A stretch of 32,000 nt of DNA from Candidatus Nanosynbacter lyticus (GTDB lineage Bacteria > Patescibacteriota > Saccharimonadia > Saccharimonadales > Saccharimonadaceae). Where the stretch lies: contig NZ_CP124549.1 of assembly GCF_030253515.1 (NCBI RefSeq), forward strand, positions 30,001 to 62,000, in the 5' to 3' direction. The notes under the pieces are model-generated. The model worked only from the letters and a program-made list of their open reading frames with translations. It did no database searches and was not told where the DNA came from. Below are positions 950-23,112 of the stretch, one piece after another; the stretch's first letter is position 1; each line of letters starts with the position of its first letter. Position numbers and translations under genes: made by a program.

Positions 950-2194
950 TTAGATTGCTGTCATTGATAAACTTGGTTGGACCTCCAGGTCGTACGGGTC
1001 GGCGGGCTGGTCTATGTGGGCGCGGAAATAGCCGAGTGCGGCGATCATGGCGGCGTTGTCGGTGCAGAGCTGGATGGGTGCGTAATCGATGTCGATAGGC
1101 AAGACCTCACGCAGTTGGCGGCGTAATTCTTGATTGGCGGCGACGCCGCCGGCGATGACGACGGAGGCAGGCTGGAAATTGTCATAGGCTTTTTTAGTCT
1201 TATCGACCAGGGTTTTAACGGCGGTGTACTGGAAACTGGCTGCCATATTATGCCTCAGTTCATCGTTTACTAGGGCAGGGAGCTCGTGCGACGGGAAGGT
1301 GAAGTCTTTGCCCACCTCGCGCTGAACAGCTCTCAGAACGGCTGTCTTGAGACCGGAGAAGGAAAAATCGTACTCGCCGGCGAGCTTGGCGATGGGTAAG
1401 TGAAAGGCGCGGGGATCGCCGAGTTCGGCGGCTTTGGCGATGGCGGGGCCACCGGGGTAGGGTAGGCCAATGATTTTAGCGACCTTGTCAAACGCCTCGC
1501 CAACGGCGTCGTCTTGGGTTTGGCCGATGAGCTGGTAGTTGCCGTGATTTTGAAACAGGACGAGCTGCGAATGTCCGCCAGAGACGATGAGGGCGAGGAG
1601 GGGGAAGGTGGGTTGATGATGTGGTAAAGACAGCTCCAAATCGCTAGAATTAACAACGGCTTCCGCACGCCGAGATGCTTTTTCGTCAGATTCTTTGGCG
1701 ACTGCGGGACTCGCTTTACTCAAACAGTCCTCGTCTCGCAAGGAATCTGACAAGCTCGCCTCTCGGGTTTGTGCAGATGTTGTTAATTCCAGCAATTTAG
1801 CATGTTTTGCGCCTCTCTTTCTCTGTTCGGTGATGAAATTAGCATACACATGCGCCTCGACATGGTGTATCTTGTAAAGCGGCTTATCGTGAATGATGGC
1901 GAGGGTGCGGGCGGCGAGAGTGCCGATGAGCAGTGAGCCGATCAGGCCGGGCGCATAGGTGACGGCGACGGCGTCGATATCATCCCAAGTACAATCGGCG
2001 TCAGACAGGGCTTTTTTGATGACAGGGTTAATAACCTCTAGGTGGCTGCGGGCGGCAATTTCCGGGATGACGCCGCCGTATTCAGCGTGGATGTCAATCT
2101 GGGAATTGACCACATTAGAAAGCAAGCGTTCGCCGTCTTCAACGACCGCCGCCGCCGTTTCGTCGCAGCTGGACTCGATTCCCAAAATCCTCAT
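950..2194 (-). CDS. tsaD: tRNA N6-adenosine threonylcarbamoyltransferase TsaD, carrying a roughly 65-aa internal insertion
   Basis: N-terminus is MRILGIESSCDETAAAVV. The HHVEAHVYA metal-binding HxxxH motif and LIVSGGHSQLV are present. At 414 aa it is longer than the usual ~340 aa because of an insert between these two motifs. Confidence 0.9.
   Translation of the reverse strand: MRILGIESSCDETAAAVVEDGERLLSNVVNSQIDIHAEYGGVIPEIAARSHLEVINPVIKKALSDADCTWDDIDAVAVTYAPGLIGSLLIGTLAARTLAIIHDKPLYKIHHVEAHVYANFITEQRKRGAKHAKLLELTTSAQTREASLSDSLRDEDCLSKASPAVAKESDEKASRRAEAVVNSSDLELSLPHHQPTFPLLALIVSGGHSQLVLFQNHGNYQLIGQTQDDAVGEAFDKVAKIIGLPYPGGPAIAKAAELGDPRAFHLPIAKLAGEYDFSFSGLKTAVLRAVQREVGKDFTFPSHELPALVNDELRHNMAASFQYTAVKTLVDKTKKAYDNFQPASVVIAGGVAANQELRRQLREVLPIDIDYAPIQLCTDNAAMIAALGYFRAHIDQPADPYDLEVQPSLSMTAI
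1636..1800. repeat. About 165-nt imperfect palindrome (long hairpin-forming element) inserted in frame in tsaD
   Basis: The left arm ccaaatcgctagaattaacaac (from 1636) matches the reverse complement of the right arm gttgttaattccagcaatttag (ending at 1800) at 19 of 22 positions. Nested inner pairs include gtcagattc (1685-1693) with gaatctgac (1743-1751), plus gcac/ccgag blocks. The length is a multiple of 3. Confidence 0.6.
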
Positions 2195-2234: not shown

Positions 2235-3533
2235 ATGAAAGCCATATTGGTGAAGTTTGTGAGGAAGGTGCTGCCGGGCGGGATGCTGCGGCGGTTAGAA
2301 AATGGGTATCGGCGGTTGCGCGTCAAGCTGGTTAGCGCGCGGTATGGCAATCCGTCAAAGCACCTCAGGGTGATCGCGGTGACGGGGACAAATGGCAAGA
2401 CGACAACGTCGTGCTATATCAATGAGATTTTGAAAGAAGCTCATTTCACGACGGCGATGTTTACCACAGCGGTGATCGAGGTGGCGGGCAAGCAAAAACT
2501 CAATGATCTCAATGCTACGGTAGCGAGCACAGCGCGGATGCAGCGGTTTTTCCGCGATGCCAAGCGGGCGAACGCTGACTACGTGGTGCTGGAGGTGACG
2601 AGTCATGCGCTGGATCAGCATAAGCTGGACGGCGTGCCGATCGAGGCGGCGGTGATGACAAATTTGACGCAGGATCACCTGGATTATCACAAGACGATGG
2701 AAGAGTATGCGGCGGCCAAGAGCAAGCTGTTTCAATTGCGCCCGCGATTTATCGTGCTCAACCGTGACGACGAGTGGTATGACTATTTCAATCAGTTTGT
2801 CGCCAGCGAGCAAAAGATGACGTACGGTCGAAGCGTGGAGGCTGAGGCAAAAATTACCCACGTCAAGTTGTACCGCAAGGGCACCGAGGCCGACGTGGTA
2901 CTGGATCATCAGACGCACTTGGAGCTAGCGACGAATCTGCCGGGCGAGTTCAACGTGATGAATATGACGGCTGCGACAACGCTGGCGTATCTGTTGGGTG
3001 TCAAGCTGGAGGATATCCAGGAGGGGGTGGCTAATGTCGAGGCCGTGCCGGGGCGGTTTGAGCGAGCGGTCGAGGGCCTGGGTTATGACGTGATCGTTGA
3101 TTATGCGCATACGCCGGATGCGCTGGAAAAACTGTTGGCGGCGGCCCGTGGTATCACTAAGCAGCGGGTGATCTTGGTGTTCGGGGCGTGCGGCGATCGT
3201 GATCAGGGCAAGCGACCGATTATGGGCGAGATCGCGGCGCGTGGAGCGGATCGGATTTTCCTGACTGACGAGGAAAGCTATAACGAAGATCCGGAGCAAA
3301 TCCGGCGGATGCTAATGGAGGGGATTGAGCGCGGTCGCGGCGACGCGAAAACGACGGAAATTGCCGATCGGCGCCGGGCGATTGAGCGAGCGCTTGGCTG
3401 CGCCAAGAAGGGCGATATGGTGCTGATCACCGGCATGGGCCACGAGCAATATCGGATCGTCAATGGTCAGCGGCTGCCGTGGAATGATGGCCAGGTGGTA
3501 CGCGAGATCGTTGGTCGGGAACGGGCGGCGTGA
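2235..3533 (+). CDS. murE: Mur ligase, MurE-type (UDP-MurNAc-L-Ala-D-Glu:diamino-acid ligase)
   Basis: Contains the VTGTNGKTTT P-loop, DHLDYH, VDYAHTPDALEKL and FGACGDRDQGKRPIMG, all MurE-like. The N-terminal domain is short, about 50 aa before the P-loop. The DNPR position reads DEES. Confidence 0.8.
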   Translation: MKAILVKFVRKVLPGGMLRRLENGYRRLRVKLVSARYGNPSKHLRVIAVTGTNGKTTTSCYINEILKEAHFTTAMFTTAVIEVAGKQKLNDLNATVASTARMQRFFRDAKRANADYVVLEVTSHALDQHKLDGVPIEAAVMTNLTQDHLDYHKTMEEYAAAKSKLFQLRPRFIVLNRDDEWYDYFNQFVASEQKMTYGRSVEAEAKITHVKLYRKGTEADVVLDHQTHLELATNLPGEFNVMNMTAATTLAYLLGVKLEDIQEGVANVEAVPGRFERAVEGLGYDVIVDYAHTPDALEKLLAAARGITKQRVILVFGACGDRDQGKRPIMGEIAARGADRIFLTDEESYNEDPEQIRRMLMEGIERGRGDAKTTEIADRRRAIERALGCAKKGDMVLITGMGHEQYRIVNGQRLPWNDGQVVREIVGRERAA

Positions 3534-3536
3534 GGT

Positions 3537-5693
3537 ATGCGGCTACTATTGGTAACCAGAGGGATTCCCGGCTCTGGTAAGTCGACGTTTCTCGCGGAGC
3601 AGGGGCTTGATACCTATACGTTGTCGCCGGACGCGATACGGTTGATGCTGGCGTCGCCGCAGTTGACGCCTGATGGACAAACGACTATGCCGTCGCGTCA
3701 AGACGCAATGGTGTGGCGGCTTCTACACGAGATGCTGGAGCAGCGGATGACGCGGGGTGAGACGACGGTGGTTGATGCAACGCACACGACGCCAAATTAT
3801 TTCAAGACGTATGGCGAGCTGTGTCGGAAATATCGCTATCGGCTGGTGGTGATTGATTTTGCTGATGTGCCGCTGGCGGTGTGTCAAGAGCGTAATCGAG
3901 AGCGGCCGAGTCATAAGGTGGTGCCGAGTAGCGTCCTTGAGCGTATGCATCGGCGGCTGCAGCAGAGTTCACTGCCAAAATGGGTGACGGTGGTACGGAC
4001 GGCTGAGGAAGTGAATCAACTGCTTACTAATCAGCCAGAGAACGTTGATAGGTATCGGGCGGTTCATCACATCGGCGATGTGCAGGGGTGTTTTGCGCCG
4101 CTGAAGGAATATTTCGAGCGGCATCCGCTTCGGGATGATGAACTGTATATTTTTGTCGGCGACCTATTAGATCGCGGTGCGGAGAATGATGCGGTGATGC
4201 GATTTGTTTGTGACGAGTTACTTGACCGACCAAACGTGCGGTTTGTGGAGGGCAACCACGAGCTATATCTCTGGCAGTGGGCGACTGATCAGCCAGTTAC
4301 GGCGCGGGTATTTAGTGAGCAAACTCAGCCACAGCTGGAGGCGGCGGGCATCGATAAGCGCAAGGTAGCGCGGCTGCTGCGGCGGATGGATCAATATATT
4401 TTGTATCAGTTTCGAGGGCAAACAGTTTTGGTGACGCATGGTGGGCTCAGTACGCTGCCGGAGCAGTTACCATTGGTGGCGACCAGCCAGCTGGTCCATG
4501 GCGTGGGGGCGTATGATGAGGTTGGGGTGGTGGACGATGCATTTATGGCGCAGACTGATGACGCGACGTTTCAGATTCACGGACATCGCAACAGGCAAAA
4601 TTACCCCACGTGCTACAACGAACGTTGCTACAATTTGGAGGGAAGGGTTGAGTTTGGCGGCGAGCTGCGAACAGTGCGGCTGGACGAGAACGGCATGACG
4701 CCAATCACTATTCAAAACCAACGAGCAGCAGCGCGGCTATATCCAGAGCACGCGGCGTTCCTAAGCCAGCTACGGCAGAATCGCTACATTCGTGAGTCGA
4801 TCCTGCCGGGTGATATCAGCTCGTTTAATTTCAAGCCCGAGGCATTTTATCGCCAGGCATGGACGACGCAAACGATGCGGGCGCGCGGACTGTTTCTCAA
4901 TACGCTGACGAACGAGATTGTGATTCGGGCCTACGATAAGTTTTTTAACATTGGCGAGCGGCGCGATACTGAACTAGCGGCGCTGGAGCAGACGATGGTC
5001 TTTCCGGTGCGGGCGTGGGTGAAGGAGAATGGCTTTTTAGGATTGGTCGGGTATGATTCGGCGGCGGGCGGGCTGGTGATCGCATCAAAGTCGACGACCG
5101 AGGGTGACTATGCGGCGGCCTTTCGGCAAGAATTTTTGGAGCAATTTCGAGACAAACTGCCATACGTCACTGATTATCTGCGCAGTCATAATGCGTGCCT
5201 GTTGTTTGAGGTGGTGTTGCCGCGATTTGATCCGCATATTATCGCCTATGAGTCGGATCAGCTGGTGCTGCTCGATATCGTCAAGCGGCAGGTTGCATAC
5301 GGGGCGGTCGACCGGCAGGAGCGGGAGCGATTTGCGCGCGAGATCGGGACGAACAGCAAGCGTCTGGCGGCGGAGTTTTCATCATGGGCAGAGTTTATGA
5401 CGTGGTTTGGCCAGCTTCACGGCATGGCGTATCGGTGGCGGGGCGAGTGGATTGAGGGTTTTGTAATTGAAGATTCTGGTGGCCATCAGGTTAAGGTCAA
5501 GCTTGATTATTATACCTTTTGGCGGCAGATGCGGACGGCACTGGCGGCGCTGCAGGCTGGTCGGCAGCCATCAACGAGGCCCGACTGCCCTGACCCGGCG
5601 TTGGCAGCGCGGGTAATTGCATATATGCGGCAGTTGCCCGCCGAGGAATTAGCGCGGATGGACATTATCGCGCTGCGGCGACGGTTTGAGTAG
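3537..5693 (+). CDS. Three-domain polynucleotide kinase / metallophosphatase / ATP-dependent RNA-ligase-like protein (bacterial Pnkp-type RNA repair enzyme)
   Basis: Residues 1-165 form a P-loop kinase (GIPGSGKST). Residues ~175-360 form a calcineurin-like phosphoesterase (GDVQG, GDLLDRG, GNHE, VTHGG, HGH). Residues ~440-718 form a nucleotidyltransferase with VKENGF (KxNG motif I), EGFVIED (motif IV) and VKVKL (motif V). The start lies 3 nt after the murE stop. Confidence 0.7.
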   Translation: MRLLLVTRGIPGSGKSTFLAEQGLDTYTLSPDAIRLMLASPQLTPDGQTTMPSRQDAMVWRLLHEMLEQRMTRGETTVVDATHTTPNYFKTYGELCRKYRYRLVVIDFADVPLAVCQERNRERPSHKVVPSSVLERMHRRLQQSSLPKWVTVVRTAEEVNQLLTNQPENVDRYRAVHHIGDVQGCFAPLKEYFERHPLRDDELYIFVGDLLDRGAENDAVMRFVCDELLDRPNVRFVEGNHELYLWQWATDQPVTARVFSEQTQPQLEAAGIDKRKVARLLRRMDQYILYQFRGQTVLVTHGGLSTLPEQLPLVATSQLVHGVGAYDEVGVVDDAFMAQTDDATFQIHGHRNRQNYPTCYNERCYNLEGRVEFGGELRTVRLDENGMTPITIQNQRAAARLYPEHAAFLSQLRQNRYIRESILPGDISSFNFKPEAFYRQAWTTQTMRARGLFLNTLTNEIVIRAYDKFFNIGERRDTELAALEQTMVFPVRAWVKENGFLGLVGYDSAAGGLVIASKSTTEGDYAAAFRQEFLEQFRDKLPYVTDYLRSHNACLLFEVVLPRFDPHIIAYESDQLVLLDIVKRQVAYGAVDRQERERFAREIGTNSKRLAAEFSSWAEFMTWFGQLHGMAYRWRGEWIEGFVIEDSGGHQVKVKLDYYTFWRQMRTALAALQAGRQPSTRPDCPDPALAARVIAYMRQLPAEELARMDIIALRRRFE

Positions 5694-5768: not shown

Positions 5769-7295
5769 ATGTGGAAACTTATTATTAGTGTTATTGGGGC
5801 TACGTTAGCGGTGTGCATCGCGGTGCCGGCGACGGCTGGAGCGACTTCTGGGTATGATGATATCATCAACAAGGTTTCAACGAAAACATTGATCCATCAC
5901 ATCGATAATTATTCGGGTAAAACCTGCGGAAGTCCTGATGACGATTACGCGAAGAAGTGGCTGTTTGCCTTTAAGCAAAAGAGATATTATTCAGGTGACC
6001 CCAGAGACCACCAGGCGGCGGTAGAAAGTTTAGAACGCGCTATGTCGTCGCCAAAGGGTGCGTACGCGGTTGTTTATGAGCAGAATAATAAACATAACGA
6101 CACGTCAAACCCATCGTTCATAAAAGTTTTTTGGACAGAGGACGGTAAGGATGATTATACGTATCGTTTTTATAAAAATCATCAAATAAGCGGGATTTAT
6201 CTTACGAGGAAGGAGGGTAGTCAGTCGAAACTTTATGTGGCTACCGTTGCCAGCCCTAAGTTGATTTTAGGAGGTGGTAATGGTAGTAATTGTGACCCTG
6301 AATACTTGTGGGGATATAAACATTCGCAGGCTTTTGTATCTGATCTGAATATATCTGTAGGATCAAATAAAAAACTCTTCACGTCTACGTTTTCTGTTGA
6401 CTATCCGAGCGGCTATGCAGGCCCCAAGTTTCCGGACAATCGCTCAGCGATCGGATGGTGGCCAGACTCGTCTCAATATGATGATTTTACAGACAAAATA
6501 ACAGTAAAAAAATTAATAAATTACATAAATTATCACAAGAAATTTTGTGCACCATCAGACTATTCTAACAGTTGGTTTACAGCGTTTAAGTATCCCAATA
6601 TTCCTGACAATCATAAGTATCATAAAAGTTATATGGCAAGTCTTGAACGGGCGATGGCGACGGGAGCGTATGCTGTTGCTTATGAACAAACGACGGTTAA
6701 TGGTAAAACAGTAAACCCCTATTTCATAACGGTATTTTGGTCAGAAAATAGCAATGACTTTCATATTAAGTTTTACGGTGATGCTCCGTACAGAGTTGCT
6801 ACCATTACACATAAGTGGGGCAGCAGTGCAAAGTTGTACGGTATGATCGCAGGTAGCACTGGACCGCTCTGGGGACGTGGCGGTTGTGAAGTTGAGTTTT
6901 TGCAGGGAAATTATCTAAATGGCTATATACCTACTGCTCGGTTTAACGAGTCGTATATACCGTTGAGCGGTGGCAATAATATGAAAATCTTCACCTCAAC
7001 CTTTGACGTCGAATATCCAGACGGCTATAAGGGTAAGCCGATTCCTGGCGATCGACGCAATATCAAGTATCTCGCCCTTGGCGACTCCTTCTCCAGCGGC
7101 GAGGGTGATACTGACAAAAATCCGGCGACTGACCGAAAGTATTATCGCCAGTGGACGGATGTGAAAGAAGATAAGGCGAAGGGTGCACCGAAGGAAAAGT
7201 GTCATATCAGTACGCGTTCGTATCCGTACAAGCTGGCGAATTGGATGGGGCTGGGTAAGCGGCCCGTCGGCGGCGTGGGCGTCGGTTGCGTGTAG
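5769..7295 (+). CDS. Secreted protein with signal peptide, two tandem ~195-aa unknown domains and the start of an SGNH/GDSL hydrolase domain (N-terminal part of a frameshifted gene)
   Basis: N-terminal signal peptide is MWKLIISVIGATLAVCIAVPATAGA. Internal repeats cover aa 29-225 and aa 237-430. GDSL block I (LALGDSFSSGEG, GDS at 7080-7088) is present, and the frame ends 70 codons later. Confidence 0.7.
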   Translation: MWKLIISVIGATLAVCIAVPATAGATSGYDDIINKVSTKTLIHHIDNYSGKTCGSPDDDYAKKWLFAFKQKRYYSGDPRDHQAAVESLERAMSSPKGAYAVVYEQNNKHNDTSNPSFIKVFWTEDGKDDYTYRFYKNHQISGIYLTRKEGSQSKLYVATVASPKLILGGGNGSNCDPEYLWGYKHSQAFVSDLNISVGSNKKLFTSTFSVDYPSGYAGPKFPDNRSAIGWWPDSSQYDDFTDKITVKKLINYINYHKKFCAPSDYSNSWFTAFKYPNIPDNHKYHKSYMASLERAMATGAYAVAYEQTTVNGKTVNPYFITVFWSENSNDFHIKFYGDAPYRVATITHKWGSSAKLYGMIAGSTGPLWGRGGCEVEFLQGNYLNGYIPTARFNESYIPLSGGNNMKIFTSTFDVEYPDGYKGKPIPGDRRNIKYLALGDSFSSGEGDTDKNPATDRKYYRQWTDVKEDKAKGAPKEKCHISTRSYPYKLANWMGLGKRPVGGVGVGCV

Positions 7296-8982
7296 TGGGG
7301 CGACGGTGTATGACATGAATTGGGACAACTCGGGTGGCTATGAAGGGCAGGACAGCCCGCTCGGGCGGCTGCATGGTTATGACAACAAAGGAGTGTTGCA
7401 GAAGATGGCGCTCAACGAGATGATCCCGGGGCGCGTCAAGCAAATCGAGTTCGTAAAGAAATACCAACCAAAGGTGATCACGCTGACGGCGGGCGGGAAT
7501 GATGTGGGGTTTGGAAATAAATTAAAAGCATGCGTGCCCTTCCCTAGTACCTGCGTGTATGCAAAAACTGAAGAGCGACGAAAGCTAAAGAACGAAATTC
7601 TTGATCAATTTGAGCGATTAAAGTCATTCTATGAGGAACTTAAAGCCGCAACGGACAACAAAGCAAAAATATATGTACTTGGCTATCCGCAATTTATAAA
7701 TGGAGCTCCTGATGCTCCGTGTGGAGGCAGGGGCCTTCTTTATCTTGACGCCAGAGAGCGCGAGATGATAACAAATTCAGTTTCTTATCTTAATGGTGTG
7801 ATCCGCCAAGCCTCCAAAGCGGCTGGGGTAAAATACATAGATGTAGAAAATGCCTTTGGCAATCATTGGCTATGTGGCGATAAACCTACTCACGTTAACC
7901 CGTTGCTGTTGGTTGAGGAGGTTGCTAGTAGGCAACCAGACTTCCACCTCCCTCCCGTTGAGCGTCAAGAAAGCTTTCATCCAAACGCTAAAGGTCACGC
8001 CGATATTGCTCGTGCTTTTAAGAAAGAATTAGGCGGTGTTAATCCTGTGGATTATAAAATCTGTAAAAATGACGCGACGACTTGTCCTGACAACTCTGCG
8101 ACAAGGGATAATATACCAACACCTCCTTATTTTAACGTTACTAATGAGCAGGAAGACATAAAGTTTACTTATTATAAACTATCCAATGGGACAGCGACAA
8201 AAGTTCAAGAAAAGCACATAGAGATCAAAACATCCAGGCGCCCGTATAAGCCATGGAAAAAGGTATACGTAAAGATTTACTCTGAGCCAAGAGATTTGGG
8301 CGAGATTGAGGCTGATGAGAATGGTGAAATTAATGGATCTGTGGCACTGCCTGAGGATTTGCCCGCTGGATATCACACGCTGGTGGTGTCTGGTGAAGCA
8401 CCAGATGGCAAGAAGCAAGAGCTATACCAAACCATTCTCGTCAAAGGTCCAAACCCCGAGGATATCGACGAAAATGATACGCCAGACAAACTCCAACCCT
8501 GCGGGGCTTTCGCTCAAGCCGCTAATAAAGACGAAGACCTTGACGGCATCGACGACGCCTGCGACCCTGAGATCACCGACCCCATCCTCTACACTGCTCG
8601 CAACGGCAAGTCGTTGCTTGGCGAAGATGAGGATCGGATTTATCTCTTTCGCAATACGCGAGCAGCTAACTTGACTGGTATCACGAACGATTACGTTGAC
8701 AAGTCAAAAAACCAGAATAACGCTGATGCGCTGGTCGGACATACTTTAAGCGAAGAGACACGCGGACTTGCATTCGATAAACTGGTCGTTATGAAAGAAG
8801 CTGACGGTGACATAAAAAAAGGAACGCCGATTATCCTCGCCAAAGACGTAAACGAAAAATGCTACGCCCTAAAACCAGAGGATTACCTATCACCAGCACT
8901 AAAGCCCGGATCAAAAAAGTATAAGCTACGAGGATTAACAAAACTAAATACACTACCGAAGGGGGTTGGTTGTGAAGAATAA
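7183..8982 (+). CDS. SGNH/GDSL hydrolase blocks II-V plus Ig-like and Ca-binding C-terminal regions (C-terminal part of the frameshifted gene)
   Basis: Contains ACSGATVYD (block II), TLTAGGNDVGF (block III) and ESFHPNAKGH (block V, catalytic His). A DxDxDGxxDxxD thrombospondin-type-3-like motif lies at 8530-8565. This frame is +1 relative to 5769..7295. The real coding part probably begins near 7257; the first in-frame ATG is at 7315. Confidence 0.7.
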   Translation: MHRRKSVISVRVRIRTSWRIGWGWVSGPSAAWASVACSGATVYDMNWDNSGGYEGQDSPLGRLHGYDNKGVLQKMALNEMIPGRVKQIEFVKKYQPKVITLTAGGNDVGFGNKLKACVPFPSTCVYAKTEERRKLKNEILDQFERLKSFYEELKAATDNKAKIYVLGYPQFINGAPDAPCGGRGLLYLDAREREMITNSVSYLNGVIRQASKAAGVKYIDVENAFGNHWLCGDKPTHVNPLLLVEEVASRQPDFHLPPVERQESFHPNAKGHADIARAFKKELGGVNPVDYKICKNDATTCPDNSATRDNIPTPPYFNVTNEQEDIKFTYYKLSNGTATKVQEKHIEIKTSRRPYKPWKKVYVKIYSEPRDLGEIEADENGEINGSVALPEDLPAGYHTLVVSGEAPDGKKQELYQTILVKGPNPEDIDENDTPDKLQPCGAFAQAANKDEDLDGIDDACDPEITDPILYTARNGKSLLGEDEDRIYLFRNTRAANLTGITNDYVDKSKNQNNADALVGHTLSEETRGLAFDKLVVMKEADGDIKKGTPIILAKDVNEKCYALKPEDYLSPALKPGSKKYKLRGLTKLNTLPKGVGCEE

Positions 8983-8988
8983 GAAGGT
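8862..8988 (+). repeat. Direct repeat copy 1 (3' end of the hydrolase gene plus start of small gene A1)
   Basis: Near-identical to 10345..10471. I saw 3 mismatches over about 127 nt, all synonymous in the hydrolase frame. Confidence 0.85.
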
Positions 8989-9265
8989 AATCAAGTGCTC
9001 AACTGTACTATATACAGGCGTAGTGTCGGTCTTGGGAATATGTCAGTTCCTGGGTGTGCCAAACCTTGATATGATCTCAATACAAGATAGGGTAATGCTA
9101 GGTGCAATTATATGGTGGCTCGGCATATTTGGTGTTGCTATGAATGCAGTTATTATAATGAAAATTCAGGAATTAAGAGCGCTGGCCACTATTTTATTAC
9201 TATTATGTGCTGCATCTGGTTTAATCGGTGGTTTTCATTACTATTTGGCGACTACCTGGGCTTGA
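8972..9265 (+). CDS. Small 3-TM membrane protein, family A (A1)
   Basis: The GTG start sits 6 nt after GAAGGGGG and overlaps the hydrolase stop (TGTGAAGAATAA). The protein begins MKNKKVIK and has three hydrophobic segments, a GVPNLD motif and GGFHYYLA. The ORF track starts it at 8966. Confidence 0.6.
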   Translation: MKNKKVIKCSTVLYTGVVSVLGICQFLGVPNLDMISIQDRVMLGAIIWWLGIFGVAMNAVIIMKIQELRALATILLLLCAASGLIGGFHYYLATTWA

Positions 9266-9315
9266 GGTTAACTTGTGAAGTATAACATAATTAACACAAA
9301 AATAAGGGGTGAATT

Positions 9316-9600
9316 GTGAAGAATAAGAAAATAATTGTGGGATTATCAATTATTGTCCCAATGTTAATATTGTTGCTAGAATACTACATAATCGGTCCGC
9401 TATTGGCCGATGGTATCAGTATATTTGTTGCACAATGCTCGTTGCTAGCTTTGAGTGCTATATTTATGATAGCGGGCATTGTCATTTTAGTGAGAGCTTC
9501 TGGGGGTTATAAATTTTGTTGTGTGCCCAGTATCGTCGCCAGCTTATTACTCGTTTTTGGATATTTTTTGTCCGAGGCTGTAAAAGAGATACGGTTCTAG
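9316..9600 (+). CDS. Small 3-TM membrane protein, family B (B1)
   Basis: GTG start preceded by AAGGGG. The protein begins MKNKKIIV and has three hydrophobic segments and the motif R-x3-YKF-C-C. Confidence 0.55.
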   Translation: MKNKKIIVGLSIIVPMLILLLEYYIIGPLLADGISIFVAQCSLLALSAIFMIAGIVILVRASGGYKFCCVPSIVASLLLVFGYFLSEAVKEIRF

Positions 9601-9643
9601 TGAGCTTGGAAAGTAAAATGTGTTATGTTCAACAAGGTGGGCT

Positions 9644-9949
9644 GTGAAGAAAAATAAGATTGTAAAATACGCCACGATAACTTATACATGTCTATTGGCG
9701 GTAATGGCATTTTGCCTATTCGCGGGAATACCGAATCTAGACATGAATCCGAGGCAAGTTAACTCACTGTTAGGGATCATTCTTGTGTGGGCAAGTGTGA
9801 TCGGTATAGCTATAAACCTGCTCACGGTAATTTTTATAAAAAGTCTACGCTCCATTGCCGTAGTGCTGCTCATCGTATGCACATTTGCACTGGCAGAAGG
9901 ATGTTTTCATTATTTTTGGTTTTCACAGCCATTCGCAGGGGGACGGTGA
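9644..9949 (+). CDS. Small 3-TM membrane protein, family A (A2)
   Basis: The GTG at 9644 gives MKKNKIVKY, analogous to A1. GIPNLDM and CFHYF motifs are shared with A1. The ORF track starts it at 9620. Confidence 0.55.
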   Translation: MKKNKIVKYATITYTCLLAVMAFCLFAGIPNLDMNPRQVNSLLGIILVWASVIGIAINLLTVIFIKSLRSIAVVLLIVCTFALAEGCFHYFWFSQPFAGGR

Positions 9950-11187: not shown

Positions 11188-11703
11188 TTTTTTACGACTT
11201 TCGCGGTACTTGGTGCGGCGATTAATAGTCATAAGAATTGTTCCGCAGATGAAAAGTGGCGGCGCGCAGAATAGATATATAAACTCTCCCAGCCCATCAG
11301 CCAGAAAGCAGTTACCTATGGAAAATCCGCTACCGCAGCGTCCAGGAATGCCCCACCCGCCGATCGTCATGTCGAGGAGCAGTATCAGTATTGCGAGGTA
11401 AAACAGGATGCCTGTTATAACAAGCGGCCATCGATTGCGCAGGTTCTGACAGCGGGCGGTGATTGACCGGTCCGTTATCTCTATCATCAGCAAGGTGATA
11501 AGCATGGCCACAATGAACCACATTGAGTCGTGCAGATAGTAATCATAATAATAGTCGGGCGGACCAAATTGGTCAGAGTTGAGCTTGTGTAGGTGGTCAT
11601 TATGGGCAGTTGCAAGCACAAAAACGAGGATCGTCAGGCCGTAAATAAGCCAACGCACGATGCGGGTGGCAATTGATTTTTTTGATGGAGCATTTTCAGT
11701 CAT
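11176..11703 (-). CDS. Multi-pass membrane protein, unknown function
   Basis: A 175-aa ORF with about 4 hydrophobic segments. Its ATG overlaps the murF stop (TGATG), so the two are translationally coupled. Its 3' end overlaps B3 convergently by 12 nt. Confidence 0.5.
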   Translation of the reverse strand: MTENAPSKKSIATRIVRWLIYGLTILVFVLATAHNDHLHKLNSDQFGPPDYYYDYYLHDSMWFIVAMLITLLMIEITDRSITARCQNLRNRWPLVITGILFYLAILILLLDMTIGGWGIPGRCGSGFSIGNCFLADGLGEFIYLFCAPPLFICGTILMTINRRTKYRESRKKSLR

Positions 11704-12989
11704 CAATGGTCGCTTTCAAAAAACTGCCGTTTCTTTTCGAGCCACGCGTCTGATTGGCGGACGAGCTTTTGGCGATCGGCGGGGTTTTTGAGGAGTGGCT
11801 TGATGGCTTCCTCGAGGTAGATGCCACCCTGGGAACCTTTGAATAGGAAGGTGGTGTCTTTATTGGCTAGGCGAGCGAGGAACTCAGTGGCATCGGTGGC
11901 TTTAGTAAACGAAGTGACGGTGCAACCGTTTTGGCGGGCGGCTGGAGCGAGGAATCGCTCGGCCAGGTGGCCAACGGTGATGACGTGGTCAAGCTGTTTT
12001 GGGTCACACAGCGCGCCGATGGCAGCGTGTTCGTCGGCTGCGGTCTCGCCCAGCTCGTTCATGTCGCCAAGGACGGCGATTTTGGTTTTGGCGGGTAGCC
12101 GGTAAAGCGTCGTCAGGGCGGATTTTACAGCGAGGGGACTGGAATTATACGAATCGTCGATGATGGTTGCACCGTTGATACCGGGCAAGATATTCATGCG
12201 GCCGCTGACTGGCGTGAAATTCTCGAGCATGGTCATCACACATTCAATGTCAAGTCCAAGCTCTAACGCCACTGCCGCTGCGCCGCCGGCAACGCGGAGT
12301 TGATGCACGCCGACAACAGGAATGATGAATGGACGTGAGGTTTGGTCAGCGTGGATGAGCTGGCACTGAAAGCCCTTGCCGCTAGTAAATTTACCGATAG
12401 CCATCTGGTAGTCGGCGCCCGGCTCGGTGCCGTAGGAAATGATTTGGCCGCAATCGGCGAAATCCACGAACTCGGGGCGAATGTCGTCGCGGTTGTAGAT
12501 CACTTTTTCGCTATATTCAGCGAGGGCAAATTCCTCGCGGGCAACAGTTTCTAATGAGCCGAAAAACTCCATGTGCTCGGGTGCGATGGCGGTGACGATG
12601 GTGACGTCAGGGCGAATATAGCGGCCGAACGCGGTCATTTCGCCGGGGTGATCAATGCCAAACTCTTGGACGACAACATCAATGTCATGCTGGCGGCGGG
12701 CGGCCTGGCGGGCTCGGCCCAAGACCGACAACCAATTCCATACCGAGCGGGGGTTCTGCGGTGAATCGACACCGAGAATTTCCAGCGGCGCGCTAAACTC
12801 GGCGTTGAAGTTGCCGCGGTTGGTGCGGACTTTATAACTGGAGTTTAGGACGCTGACGAGAGTTGATTTGGTAGTGGTTTTGCCGACGCTGCCGACGACG
12901 GCAACGAGCTTGATGTGCGGATTATGCAGGAAGAACGCGGTGACAGAGCGGGCGAGAATGCGCGAGATGAGGGTTTTGAAGAGTCTCAT
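11703..12989 (-). CDS. murF: UDP-MurNAc-tripeptide:D-Ala-D-Ala ligase (MurF-type Mur ligase)
   Basis: Contains the VVGSVGKTTTKS P-loop, IDDSYNSSP and GDMNELG motifs. I prefer the ATG at 12989 (MRLFKT...), which has TGCTATACT 6 nt upstream. The ORF track extends the frame to 13067. Confidence 0.8.
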   Translation of the reverse strand: MRLFKTLISRILARSVTAFFLHNPHIKLVAVVGSVGKTTTKSTLVSVLNSSYKVRTNRGNFNAEFSAPLEILGVDSPQNPRSVWNWLSVLGRARQAARRQHDIDVVVQEFGIDHPGEMTAFGRYIRPDVTIVTAIAPEHMEFFGSLETVAREEFALAEYSEKVIYNRDDIRPEFVDFADCGQIISYGTEPGADYQMAIGKFTSGKGFQCQLIHADQTSRPFIIPVVGVHQLRVAGGAAAVALELGLDIECVMTMLENFTPVSGRMNILPGINGATIIDDSYNSSPLAVKSALTTLYRLPAKTKIAVLGDMNELGETAADEHAAIGALCDPKQLDHVITVGHLAERFLAPAARQNGCTVTSFTKATDATEFLARLANKDTTFLFKGSQGGIYLEEAIKPLLKNPADRQKLVRQSDAWLEKKRQFFESDH

Positions 12990-13053
12990 GAGTATAGTAT
13001 AGCATCTTTTGAATATGGGTAGTGAATCAGGAACTTGATTTTTTATCAAGTTT

Positions 13054-13332
13054 ATGCTAATATTCACTACAGTTATGCTTAATCATGAACGGACATCAGC
13101 ACGAAGGTTAGCACCACCTCGTTGGGGCAGGGTGGATGACATATTATATGCTGTCACAAAAACACCAGAATACCAAAAAACAATCAATGAGGTGAAGTCT
13201 CAAAGAGCTGAGCGACAGCCAGCACAAGAGAGTAATACCGAAGAGTGGGGTGCACGACTTATCGAAAGCTTGCCTAGTGTGCTGCGCGGAAAAGCGGTCA
13301 CTCTTCTGGCTGCACAAGCCGTGTCGGAGTGA
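13054..13332 (+). CDS. Hypothetical protein; possibly the N-terminal part of a gene interrupted by TGA
   Basis: A 92-aa ORF in an AT-richer segment. Its TGA (13330-13332) is followed immediately, in the same frame, by the next ORF. Confidence 0.35.
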   Translation: MLIFTTVMLNHERTSARRLAPPRWGRVDDILYAVTKTPEYQKTINEVKSQRAERQPAQESNTEEWGARLIESLPSVLRGKAVTLLAAQAVSE

Positions 13333-21873: not shown

Positions 21874-23112
21874 CTACCTTGCCGCAAATTCACTCACCAA
21901 ATAAAACGACCCGGTAACAACGACGTACGTATCGAGTTGCCGGGCCTTCTTGATAGCTTTCGCGAGAGCCTTGTCTGTATTATGTTCAATCTCGACTGCA
22001 GATTTCATGACATGGCGGATAATTTCCGGCGGCATGTTGCGGTGATTTTTGCCGTAATTGGTGCTAAATGTGGTGGCGTAGGTTAGTTGCGCCAGGTTGT
22101 CAATTATAGCAAGCGATTCTGCTATTGATGACTGCTTATTTTGCCCGAATGCTACTACGAAGATAGGCTTTTTATCCGGATATAATTTCCGCAATGAATC
22201 AATCAAAGCGCGGATTTTCTGGGGATTATGCGCAACATCAAATATGATGTTAACTCCATCAACATTGCGCTTCTCTAACCGTCCAGGAATAGTGATATGC
22301 ACGGATTTTTCCAGAACTTCTTTTGGCAGGGACGGCTTTTTATTCAGTGCCAGCTGCTTTTCGACGGCGCGGTACGCCAATGTCCAATTCCGCTGCTGAA
22401 AATCCGGCAGTATTTTCAGGAATTCGCTAGTCACTGGTGAAGTAATCGAGAATTGTGTATGCTGCTCCTCTGCACGTTGTCGAACAACCATTTCAATCTC
22501 AGAAGCTTGCCGGTTCATAACGACTGAATCGCTTTGATGGATAATGCCAGCTTTTTCTTGGGCGATTTCTGTCAGAGTATTGCCTAATAATTCCGTATGG
22601 TCTAGTCCGATATCAGTGATGACGCGTACCGTTGGCGAACGGAAAATCACGTTGGTTGTATCTAGCCGACCGCCAATCCCAACCTCAATTATGATATAAT
22701 CAACTCTCATTTCCTTAAATAGCCAAAAACTAAAAATCGTCAAAAATTCAAAATACGATAGATGCAGGTTGTGTACTATATAAAGATTGGCAAACGCTTG
22801 AAAATAATGCAAATATTCTTGTTCAGGCAGTGGCTGTCCGTTGATTAGCGAGCGCTCGGCGACGCTGGCAATATGCGGCGACACTAACATGCCGGTAGTA
22901 TAGCCAGCCCGGTTCAGTAAACTGGTAGCATAATAAGCAGTCGAACCCTTGCCGGAGGTGCCGGCGATGTGGATGGCGGGAATTTGATTTTGCGGACTGC
23001 CAAGGGTTTCCAAAATATGCGCTACATATGCCAGCCGATCATGCTTTTTGGGCGGATGAGCAATTAGCTCGTCCAAAAAATAAGTGGCGTCGCGCATTGA
23101 GGCAAATTTCAT
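21874..23112 (-). CDS. folC: Folylpolyglutamate synthase/dihydrofolate synthase family Mur-ligase (FolC-like)
   Basis: Contains the IHIAGTSGKGST P-loop and has FolC-like length and layout (412 aa). TGCTATAAT lies 10 nt upstream of the ATG. Confidence 0.75.
   Translation of the reverse strand: MKFASMRDATYFLDELIAHPPKKHDRLAYVAHILETLGSPQNQIPAIHIAGTSGKGSTAYYATSLLNRAGYTTGMLVSPHIASVAERSLINGQPLPEQEYLHYFQAFANLYIVHNLHLSYFEFLTIFSFWLFKEMRVDYIIIEVGIGGRLDTTNVIFRSPTVRVITDIGLDHTELLGNTLTEIAQEKAGIIHQSDSVVMNRQASEIEMVVRQRAEEQHTQFSITSPVTSEFLKILPDFQQRNWTLAYRAVEKQLALNKKPSLPKEVLEKSVHITIPGRLEKRNVDGVNIIFDVAHNPQKIRALIDSLRKLYPDKKPIFVVAFGQNKQSSIAESLAIIDNLAQLTYATTFSTNYGKNHRNMPPEIIRHVMKSAVEIEHNTDKALAKAIKKARQLDTYVVVTGSFYLVSEFAAR

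Follow-up and report, generated by a model that had tools for sequence, protein, structure and literature searches.

An in-frame palindromic insert at a polymorphic site of tsaD in Candidatus Nanosynbacter lyticus and related Saccharibacteria

The stretch of DNA analysed here, referred to as the window, comprises 32,000 nt of Candidatus Nanosynbacter lyticus (contig NZ_CP124549.1, positions 30,001 to 62,000) and has a GC content of 50%. Its tsaD gene, encoding the tRNA t6A37 threonylcarbamoyltransferase subunit, carries a 174-nt in-frame insert that forms most of a long imperfect palindrome. Judged by comparison with related sequences, this insert represents one of several alleles of an in-frame cassette that is hypervariable and dispensable, and not a lineage-specific domain; on the same basis, it arose more recently than the gene around it and spreads from lineage to lineage. 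Relatives carry empty, filled and inverted alleles at the same codon, and a GC-rich module of the sister alleles, here called V, was observed at two further loci, at one of them as a fragment. We propose that the palindrome of the window may have been built in place by hairpin template switching and subsequently exchanged between strains.

Structure of the palindrome and its position in TsaD

The gene, the insert and the segments into which the insert can be divided are listed below. Related loci used for comparison are designated by L numbers.

950..2194, minus strand: tsaD, 414 aa, tRNA t6A37 threonylcarbamoyltransferase subunit, host of the insert (open reading frame (ORF); PF00814 homologues at 73-98% identity; PDB TsaD matches at E = 1e-74)
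1649..1822, minus strand: insert proper, 174 nt / 58 aa, residues 125-182, RKRGAKHAKLLELTTSAQTREASLSDSLRDEDCLSKASPAVAKESDEKASRRAEAVVN (protein alignment; comparison by codon with L002 and L008, both empty alleles)
1799..1822, minus strand: insert head, 24 nt, non-palindromic, RKRGAKHA (outside the paired region in folds)
1739..1798, minus strand: 5' arm (gene sense), module A, specific to the 414-aa allele class (inverted repeat; present in 6 species genomes)
1698..1738, minus strand: 41-nt spacer separating the arms, which contains a small hairpin of its own, GGACT...AGTCC (folds)
1649..1705, minus strand: module R1, AVAKESDEKASRRAEAVVN, most of the 3' arm (blastn between alleles; 91-100% identity to the 433-aa and 421-aa alleles, both without the 5' arm)
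1638..1648, minus strand: native tsaD codons, TCTAGCGATTT, SSDL, outermost part of the 3' arm (codon homology with empty alleles; TCTAGAAACCTA in L002, SGDLSLSLP-type peptides)

The two arms (1638-1697 and 1739-1798) are 60 nt each, 72% complementary and 41 nt apart, giving a 161-nt imperfect palindrome. A palindrome inside the essential gene tsaD had been described in an initial annotation of this DNA, and it proved to be real. The motifs quoted there are present, with gaattaacaac (1647-1657) pairing with gttgttaattc (1779-1789) and gtcagattc (1685-1693) pairing with gaatctgac (1743-1751). The structure is also significant against shuffled controls: the sense RNA folds at -87.8 kcal/mol, compared with -53.5 +/- 4.4 kcal/mol in dinucleotide shuffles (z = -7.84, none of 200 shuffles as good), and the DNA fold of the palindrome reaches z = -4.81. 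In agreement with the same annotation, the insert lies in frame and its 174 nt contain no stop codon in the predicted translation. The size given there, about 65 extra residues, had to be corrected, as the indel relative to insert-free close relatives amounts to 58 aa (174 nt, 1649-1822). Within the window, the palindrome is the sole inverted repeat of at least 30 nt, and a sliding fold scan (180 nt) gave it as the strongest outlier on each strand. Seven allele copies of the hairpin were compared and found to be 96-99% identical within the insert.

The AlphaFold2 model of TsaD, based on a 20-sequence alignment, had a mean predicted local distance difference test (pLDDT) score of 34, and the insert was placed instead through sequence alignment to PDB entries. 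Residues 1-120 and 127-326 of Thermotoga TsaD (6nak_B) align with residues 1-122 and 198-410 of the window protein, which has approximately 75 residues where 6nak_B has a 6-residue linker, directly after the HHVEAH metal motif. The insert is best read as occupying a linker that tolerates extra sequence, after the HxxxH helix and before the first strand of TsaD's second lobe, where it may be translated into a disordered loop.

The palindrome is shifted relative to the indel. The head of the insert (1799-1822) is unpaired, and 1638-1648 of the other arm are host codons. Native tsaD sequence restarts at TCTAGCGATTTG (SSDL), the codon-for-codon homologue of TCTAGAAACCTA in the empty allele L002, and the end of the 5' arm, AAATTGCTGGA, is an inverted copy of these native codons (9 of 11 positions complementary). 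By our own calculation, the chance of such a match at a fixed position is about 1e-4. Because the outer arm is an inverted copy of native codons, it points to construction in place and not to the insertion of a ready-made element. No direct repeat or target-site duplication was detected at the insert junctions (CAG/AGA ... AAT/TCT). The ORFs of the 32-kb window include no transposase or recombinase, and the neighbours of tsaD are ordinary housekeeping genes. The 24-nt head had no match in the window or in 560 kb of related loci.

Alleles at the tsaD site and age of the insert

Among the 120 best TsaD homologues, overall identity is 73-98% and exceeds 90% once the insert site is left out. These proteins are 356, 413/414, 421, 423/425, 433 and 435/437 aa long, and in the alignment all of this length variation falls at one codon position. 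The empty site is represented by the 356-aa alleles of close relatives (INQQ/SGDLSLSLPKK and variants), which lack the insert; the insert peptide is not conserved among the TsaD orthologues. The initial annotation had named a lineage-specific domain as the outcome that would speak against its reading, and this is not what the alignment contains, the site being polymorphic among relatives more than 90% identical outside the insert. Besides the empty alleles, five mosaic insert architectures of 58-81 aa were identified, including that of the window. In the following list, X denotes a short left-hand module, V the GC-rich core (75-80 nt), V' reversed V, and R1 and R2 the right-hand modules; a/a' and b/b' in tsaD, like c/c' in dus (see below), are short inverted-repeat pairs flanking V.

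414-aa allele (window): 24-nt head, then class-specific 5' arm and loop, then R1
421-aa allele: a'-V'-b'-R1
423/425-aa alleles: a'-V'-a-R2
433-aa allele: X-b-V-b'-R1
435/437-aa alleles: X-b-V-a-R2

The sequenced tsaD inserts measure 174, 195, 201, 207, 231, 237 and 243 nt, and each is a multiple of 3, stop-free and hairpin-built. Since every allele is in frame and free of stops, the insert is predicted to remain in the protein. The orientation of V flips between alleles, with L001 63-164 being the reverse complement of L005 49-150 at 98% identity; V has one open frame per orientation, and this is the frame used in every case. The GC content of V (66%, L001 10082-10163) and R2 (64%, L004 10129-10252) exceeds the 45-50% of the carrier genomes, and R2 is itself palindromic over ~100 nt. 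The 414-aa allele of the window was recovered in 10 protein clusters, of which one comprises 193 sequences, as well as from 6 independent species genomes.

Two further ideas were tried on this allele series. A single series of inversions linking the four V-containing arrangements listed above was sought, and no such reduction was obtained. RNA-specific selection found no support either: the sense strand folds somewhat better than the antisense strand in the window allele (-78.6 vs -69.3 kcal/mol), and the opposite holds in the R2-type alleles.

Polymorphism in the insert was compared with that in the rest of tsaD (core) by Fisher test, using 5 genomes of the 414-aa class and 4 genomes of the 433-aa class.

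414-aa class: segregating sites 9/174 in the insert and 184/1068 in the core (p = 1.3e-5); nonsynonymous 6/9 and 51/184, respectively
433-aa class: segregating sites 8/231 in the insert and 158/1068 in the core (p = 2e-7); nonsynonymous 6/8 and 31/158, respectively

The changes within the insert are few and mostly nonsynonymous, which indicates recent common ancestry and not purifying selection on the peptide. Third-position differences amount to 0-7% in the insert and 13-25% in the core. Diversity is 0-0.03 within the insert and is back to 0.07-0.10 by one 30-nt bin past each border. Furthermore, shared modules are 89-100% identical in every informative pair, compared with 84-94% for the core gene, and oppositely oriented copies of V are 98.8% identical, compared with 89% for the core gene. 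The allele types are scattered across the core-protein tree, which indicates that the cassettes move between lineages.

Related modules and palindromes at other loci

Other copies of the window palindrome, for which the initial annotation had recommended a search, were not found: no second copy is present in the window or in 560 kb of related loci, nor, by exact 20-mer, in Saccharibacteria species genomes outside tsaD. The 20-mer used, common to both arm termini (GTTGTTAATTCYAGCRATTT), was scanned against one genome per species for 185,579 species, a search that needs an exact match and misses strongly diverged copies. It returned 10 Saccharibacteria matches, all within tsaD, 6 of which had both arms. 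These R1-carrying genomes (10 species representatives) belong to Candidatus Saccharibacteria, and several come from oral samples. Eleven further matches, each single and in unrelated organisms outside the Saccharibacteria, were taken as chance. A search of the 58-aa insert peptide against 1.84 billion representative proteins, which may miss polymorphic inserts, retrieved a TsaD fragment with a frameshift, a spurious TPR protein and nothing else. In viral contigs, neither the arm terminus nor the V core was matched, and full-text literature searches returned nothing on palindromic or MITE-like inserts in Saccharibacteria (MITE, miniature inverted-repeat transposable element).

The sister module V was observed at further loci. 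A scan of 241 million metagenome records for a V 19-mer identified 36 loci, of which 11 are in tsaD, 15 carry full-length V (92-100% identity) in dus and 1 lies upstream of metG. In the remaining 9, the match was no longer than 19-24 nt and was treated as chance. Representative positions of V, together with those of a palindromic insert in a P-type ATPase gene, are as follows.

L031, 2261-3331: dus, with V at 3005-3084
L054, 3842-3885 (603-kb JGI contig): metG-leader V fragment, 42 nt, 100% identical, upstream of the methionyl-tRNA synthetase gene (2288-3778, minus strand)
L038, 8137-8226 (gene 7254-9683), and L045, 395-2791: P-type ATPase palindromic insert, 24-31 aa in frame, just past the DKTGT motif

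The dus gene encodes a tRNA-dihydrouridine synthase (PF01207), in which V is in frame and yields the same peptide as in tsaD: EEAVTGASSPVSRTPRAGEATRKEYSE. The site, located between GRGIFSDPFCF and LIALLHYH, is hypervariable, with proteins ranging from 333 to 450 aa. One of the Dus homologues, at 81% identity, carries the name Candidatus Nanosynbacter lyticus. The alleles include stem-only forms (…AVELSSVEE/AEDRLAAH…), V forward, V reversed in the same stems, V internally deleted and many larger mosaics. Other loci with the dus palindrome site are L032, L033, L035, L038, L043, L044, L047, L048, L051, L052, L057-L059, L063, L066 and L067. In the reversed allele (L031 compared with L067), everything between identical c/c' stems is inverted. 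The presence of V in dus corresponds to a 75-nt difference with the 5-nt GAGGC at both junctions, which could equally be microhomology.

The stems enclosing V are locus-specific, namely a/a' and b/b' in tsaD and c/c' in dus. Among 13 distinct alleles of the c/c' stems, 4 have CG at -17/+17 and 9 have TA, while at -15/+15 there are 4 with AT and 9 with GC; all 13 are paired at both compensatory positions, although each arm also encodes protein. V is the only tsaD module that was found in dus. In the metG leader, the L054 locus ends immediately past the V match. The possibility that V is a tRNA-like sequence was rejected by ARAGORN. The kind of spread that the initial annotation had envisaged is seen for the sister module V, which occurs in frame and in both orientations in dus and partly in an intergenic leader; in the searches above it was not found for the window's own palindrome. 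In that V has moved between genes, part of the system is mobile in a wider sense; templated insertion and transposition both fit.

In L045 (8048-9667), a dus sequence (residues 2-277) is joined through V to tsaD (residues 186-414) at 3x coverage. This join is most likely attributable to the assembler merging two V copies, both in one sample, and a V common to several loci can produce such chimeric contigs in metagenome assemblies. Additionally, the N-termini of the predicted Dus proteins P0123-P0242 vary by 0-120 residues with a mosaic composition, e.g. MAVFLNVENYSEQNRLSPPTPYLDDEIG..., which may be due to wrongly called start codons in a variable upstream region or to a further variable module.

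In ~450 kb of related loci, palindromes longer than 100 nt were found at the tsaD and dus sites only, in addition to the 91-nt one in the P-type ATPase. Two contigs (L038 and L045) carry the ATPase insert and four related ones do not. The right arm of this insert (TTTTCTGAGTCAGCTATTGCTGAGC, FSESAIAEL) has a native orthologue, LSESVVAEL, in the alleles without the insert. The left arm repeats the right arm in inverted form (22/25), and the orientation of the loop is opposite in L038 and L045. The tsaD, dus and ATPase sites could serve as highly discriminating strain markers for oral TM7.

Other features of the window were also recorded. The 718-aa protein encoded at 3537-5693 joins polynucleotide kinase (AAA_33), phosphoesterase (Metallophos) and T4-type RNA ligase in one chain and is a Pnkp-like RNA repair enzyme. 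It is split in L003 (358 + 332 aa) and missing at the same position in L001, L002, L004 and L007, which places it in a variable island two genes from tsaD. Three Mur-ligase paralogues are present (2235-3533, 11703-13067 and 21874-23112), and the number and arrangement of Mur ligases beside tsaD vary among the related contigs L001-L007.

Origin of the cassettes and comparison with known systems

The reading we favour, at a probability of about one half, is that hairpin template switching produced the window palindrome in place and that strains then exchanged it, the cassette being dispensable and adding extra linker to TsaD. A structured seed sequence would arrive in the tolerant linker. During replication or repair, the nascent strand would fold back on the hairpin and copy the opposite arm (quasi-palindrome template switching), and the palindrome would grow outward, eventually into host codons, with the arms staying complementary and the spacer being inverted now and then. 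In an essential gene, survivors would be limited to inserts that are a multiple of three in length and stop-free. Finished cassettes would then pass between strains and species of naturally recombining oral Saccharibacteria via homologous recombination in the flanking tsaD, and such exchange would account for each cassette class being much younger than the surrounding gene. At least one seed, V from the sister alleles, would also have been copied between genes.

Template switching between inverted-repeat arms leads to arm homogenisation and spacer inversion in coding DNA (PMC8604942), and quasi-palindrome template-switch mutagenesis is a known mutational route in E. coli (PMC7202029). The inverted copy of adjacent sequence, the complementary arms and the inverted spacers described above correspond to these published signatures and hence suggest that the palindrome was built in place.

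Several observations weigh against this scenario. The arms are only 72% complementary, while R1 is 96-100% identical to R1 in alleles without the other arm. A recent fold-back copy should be near perfect, so the model needs either fast divergence of the new arm or homogenisation of R1 by recombination with the common 433-aa alleles. The polymorphism of the flanks begins ~7-20 nt from the insert, which is tight for spread by recombination only. The copies of V at three unrelated loci are 92-100% identical, their flanks resemble each other over no more than 6 nt, and the GAGGC repeat is present at the dus junctions; transposition would explain this equally well. Finally, the model does not explain the 24-nt head or the GC-rich cores V and R2.

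A broader proposal, which we put forward tentatively, is that oral Saccharibacteria harbour previously undescribed, self-extending in-frame hairpin cassettes. A GC-rich core such as V would move between genes and nucleate palindrome growth from host codons, and the resulting invertible mosaics would be exchanged across species, the window palindrome being one mature product. If true, this would provide hypervariable linkers inside essential enzymes.

Construction in place has a serious but rather doubtful competitor in a true non-autonomous mobile element, MITE-like or similar to the Rickettsia palindromic elements (RPEs), served by a transposase in trans and preferring the tsaD linker, with the modules representing different element families. 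Such an element would account for a palindromic, in-frame insert of 100-250 nt that is present or absent among close relatives, is younger than its host gene and has sharp borders. It would also accommodate V, whose copies in tsaD, in dus and, over 42 nt, in the metG leader are 92-100% identical, lie in both orientations and have a 5-nt direct repeat at the dus junctions; RPEs are likewise 100-150 bp long and occur in coding and intergenic DNA (PMC1779305, PMC10969869). However, the window palindrome was confined to a single locus in every search and has no target-site duplication, and native host sequence makes up both the outer arm in tsaD and the right arm in the ATPase. Each locus has its own stems around V in place of conserved termini, and V occupies only 2-3 sites among the 241 million metagenome records. 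The lack of a transposase in the window and the restriction of long palindromes to the tsaD and dus sites, with the shorter one in the ATPase, also argue against a mobile element.

It is unlikely that the hairpin or the peptide is functional and under selection, either as a cis-acting RNA or DNA structure for tsaD (and dus and metG) or as a diversifying linker that, for example, escapes an inhibitor of tRNA-modification enzymes. The compensatory changes that preserve stem pairing are consistent with a function, as is the stronger conservation of the insert nucleotides relative to the surrounding gene. Two of the three affected genes, tsaD and dus, are tRNA-related, as is the metG leader, and discrete allele classes common to several species resemble balanced polymorphism. 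Nevertheless, close relatives have insert-free alleles, V occurs in both orientations, which alters both the RNA and the peptide, and the few substitutions in the insert are mostly nonsynonymous. The same anatomy is found in a P-type ATPase, Rfam holds no family matching the window hairpin, V or the metG-leader fragment, and mismatches in the stems (G-T and C-A) are not biased towards either strand. A lineage-specific loop expansion or domain of the ordinary kind, or an assembly artefact, is highly improbable: the linker of the empty allele is already ~11 residues longer than that of Thermotoga TsaD, but the site is polymorphic in a group more than 90% identical, the palindrome is significant, and the 414-aa allele recurs across protein clusters and independent species genomes.

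With construction in place as the favoured origin, the cassettes can be compared with four known systems. Like the tsaD insert, homing elements such as inteins and group I introns occupy one fixed position within a conserved essential gene, are polymorphic for presence or absence and show evidence of horizontal spread. However, the insert is far too small and has no endonuclease and no splicing residues, starting with R or G, with R2-type alleles lacking a terminal HN. An intein or self-splicing intron was accordingly rejected, there being no Rfam hit, no Cys or Ser at insert position 1 and no conserved terminal HN, and all alleles being in frame and stop-free.

Bacterial MITEs (ERIC, BOX, Correia and Anabaena MITEs) are likewise small, hairpin-forming DNA without coding capacity that can sit inside ORFs. 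In contrast to these, the window element shares no conserved terminal inverted repeats with other loci, shows no target-site duplication and has a very low copy number, and no parent insertion sequence or transposase was detected. The products of quasi-palindrome template switching resemble the cassettes in the inverted copy of adjacent sequence, the compensatory arm correction and the spacer inversion in coding DNA (PMC8604942, PMC7202029). They differ in scale, with few-nucleotide changes as opposed to arms of 25-60 nt and inserts of 72-243 nt, and in that the cassettes are common to several species and a core has moved between genes.

Among the systems outside the Rickettsiales known to us, the behaviour of these cassettes comes closest to that of RPEs, although the palindrome of the window was seen in one gene only. 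RPEs, 100-150 bp in length, are repeats interspersed through both coding and intergenic DNA (PMC1779305) and are often found as in-frame insertions (PMC10969869); they reach tens of copies per genome and are recognisable by family hidden Markov models (PMC1779305, PMC10969869). The RPE-like reading of the initial annotation thus stands in part: the insert is a palindrome, in frame, absent in close relatives and younger than its gene, but in the searches made here it did not behave as an interspersed repeat, and it lacks a target-site duplication. As with RPE-1 to RPE-10 and the protein-coding palindromic repeats of Wolbachia, an in-frame palindrome in a housekeeping gene is present or absent among relatives. 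The host is similarly a reduced-genome, host-dependent bacterium, and the sister module V occurs in two unrelated genes and an intergenic leader. Unlike RPEs, the window palindrome is known from one locus, unrelated modules pile up at one codon, spacers invert, arms take in host codons, and the host phylum is Saccharibacteria / Patescibacteria.

Protein-coding palindromes have hitherto been treated as a peculiarity of Rickettsia and Wolbachia, and the same outcome is now observed in unrelated, ultra-small, host-dependent Saccharibacteria of the Candidate Phyla Radiation. Their origin, by template switching or by transposition, and their role in new protein segments become testable, as Saccharibacteria are now culturable and transformable. 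Steps that are only inferred for RPEs are visible here, including empty, stem-only, filled and inverted alleles, arms composed of host codons, inserts younger than the gene, and compensatory arm changes that rewrite both encoded peptides.

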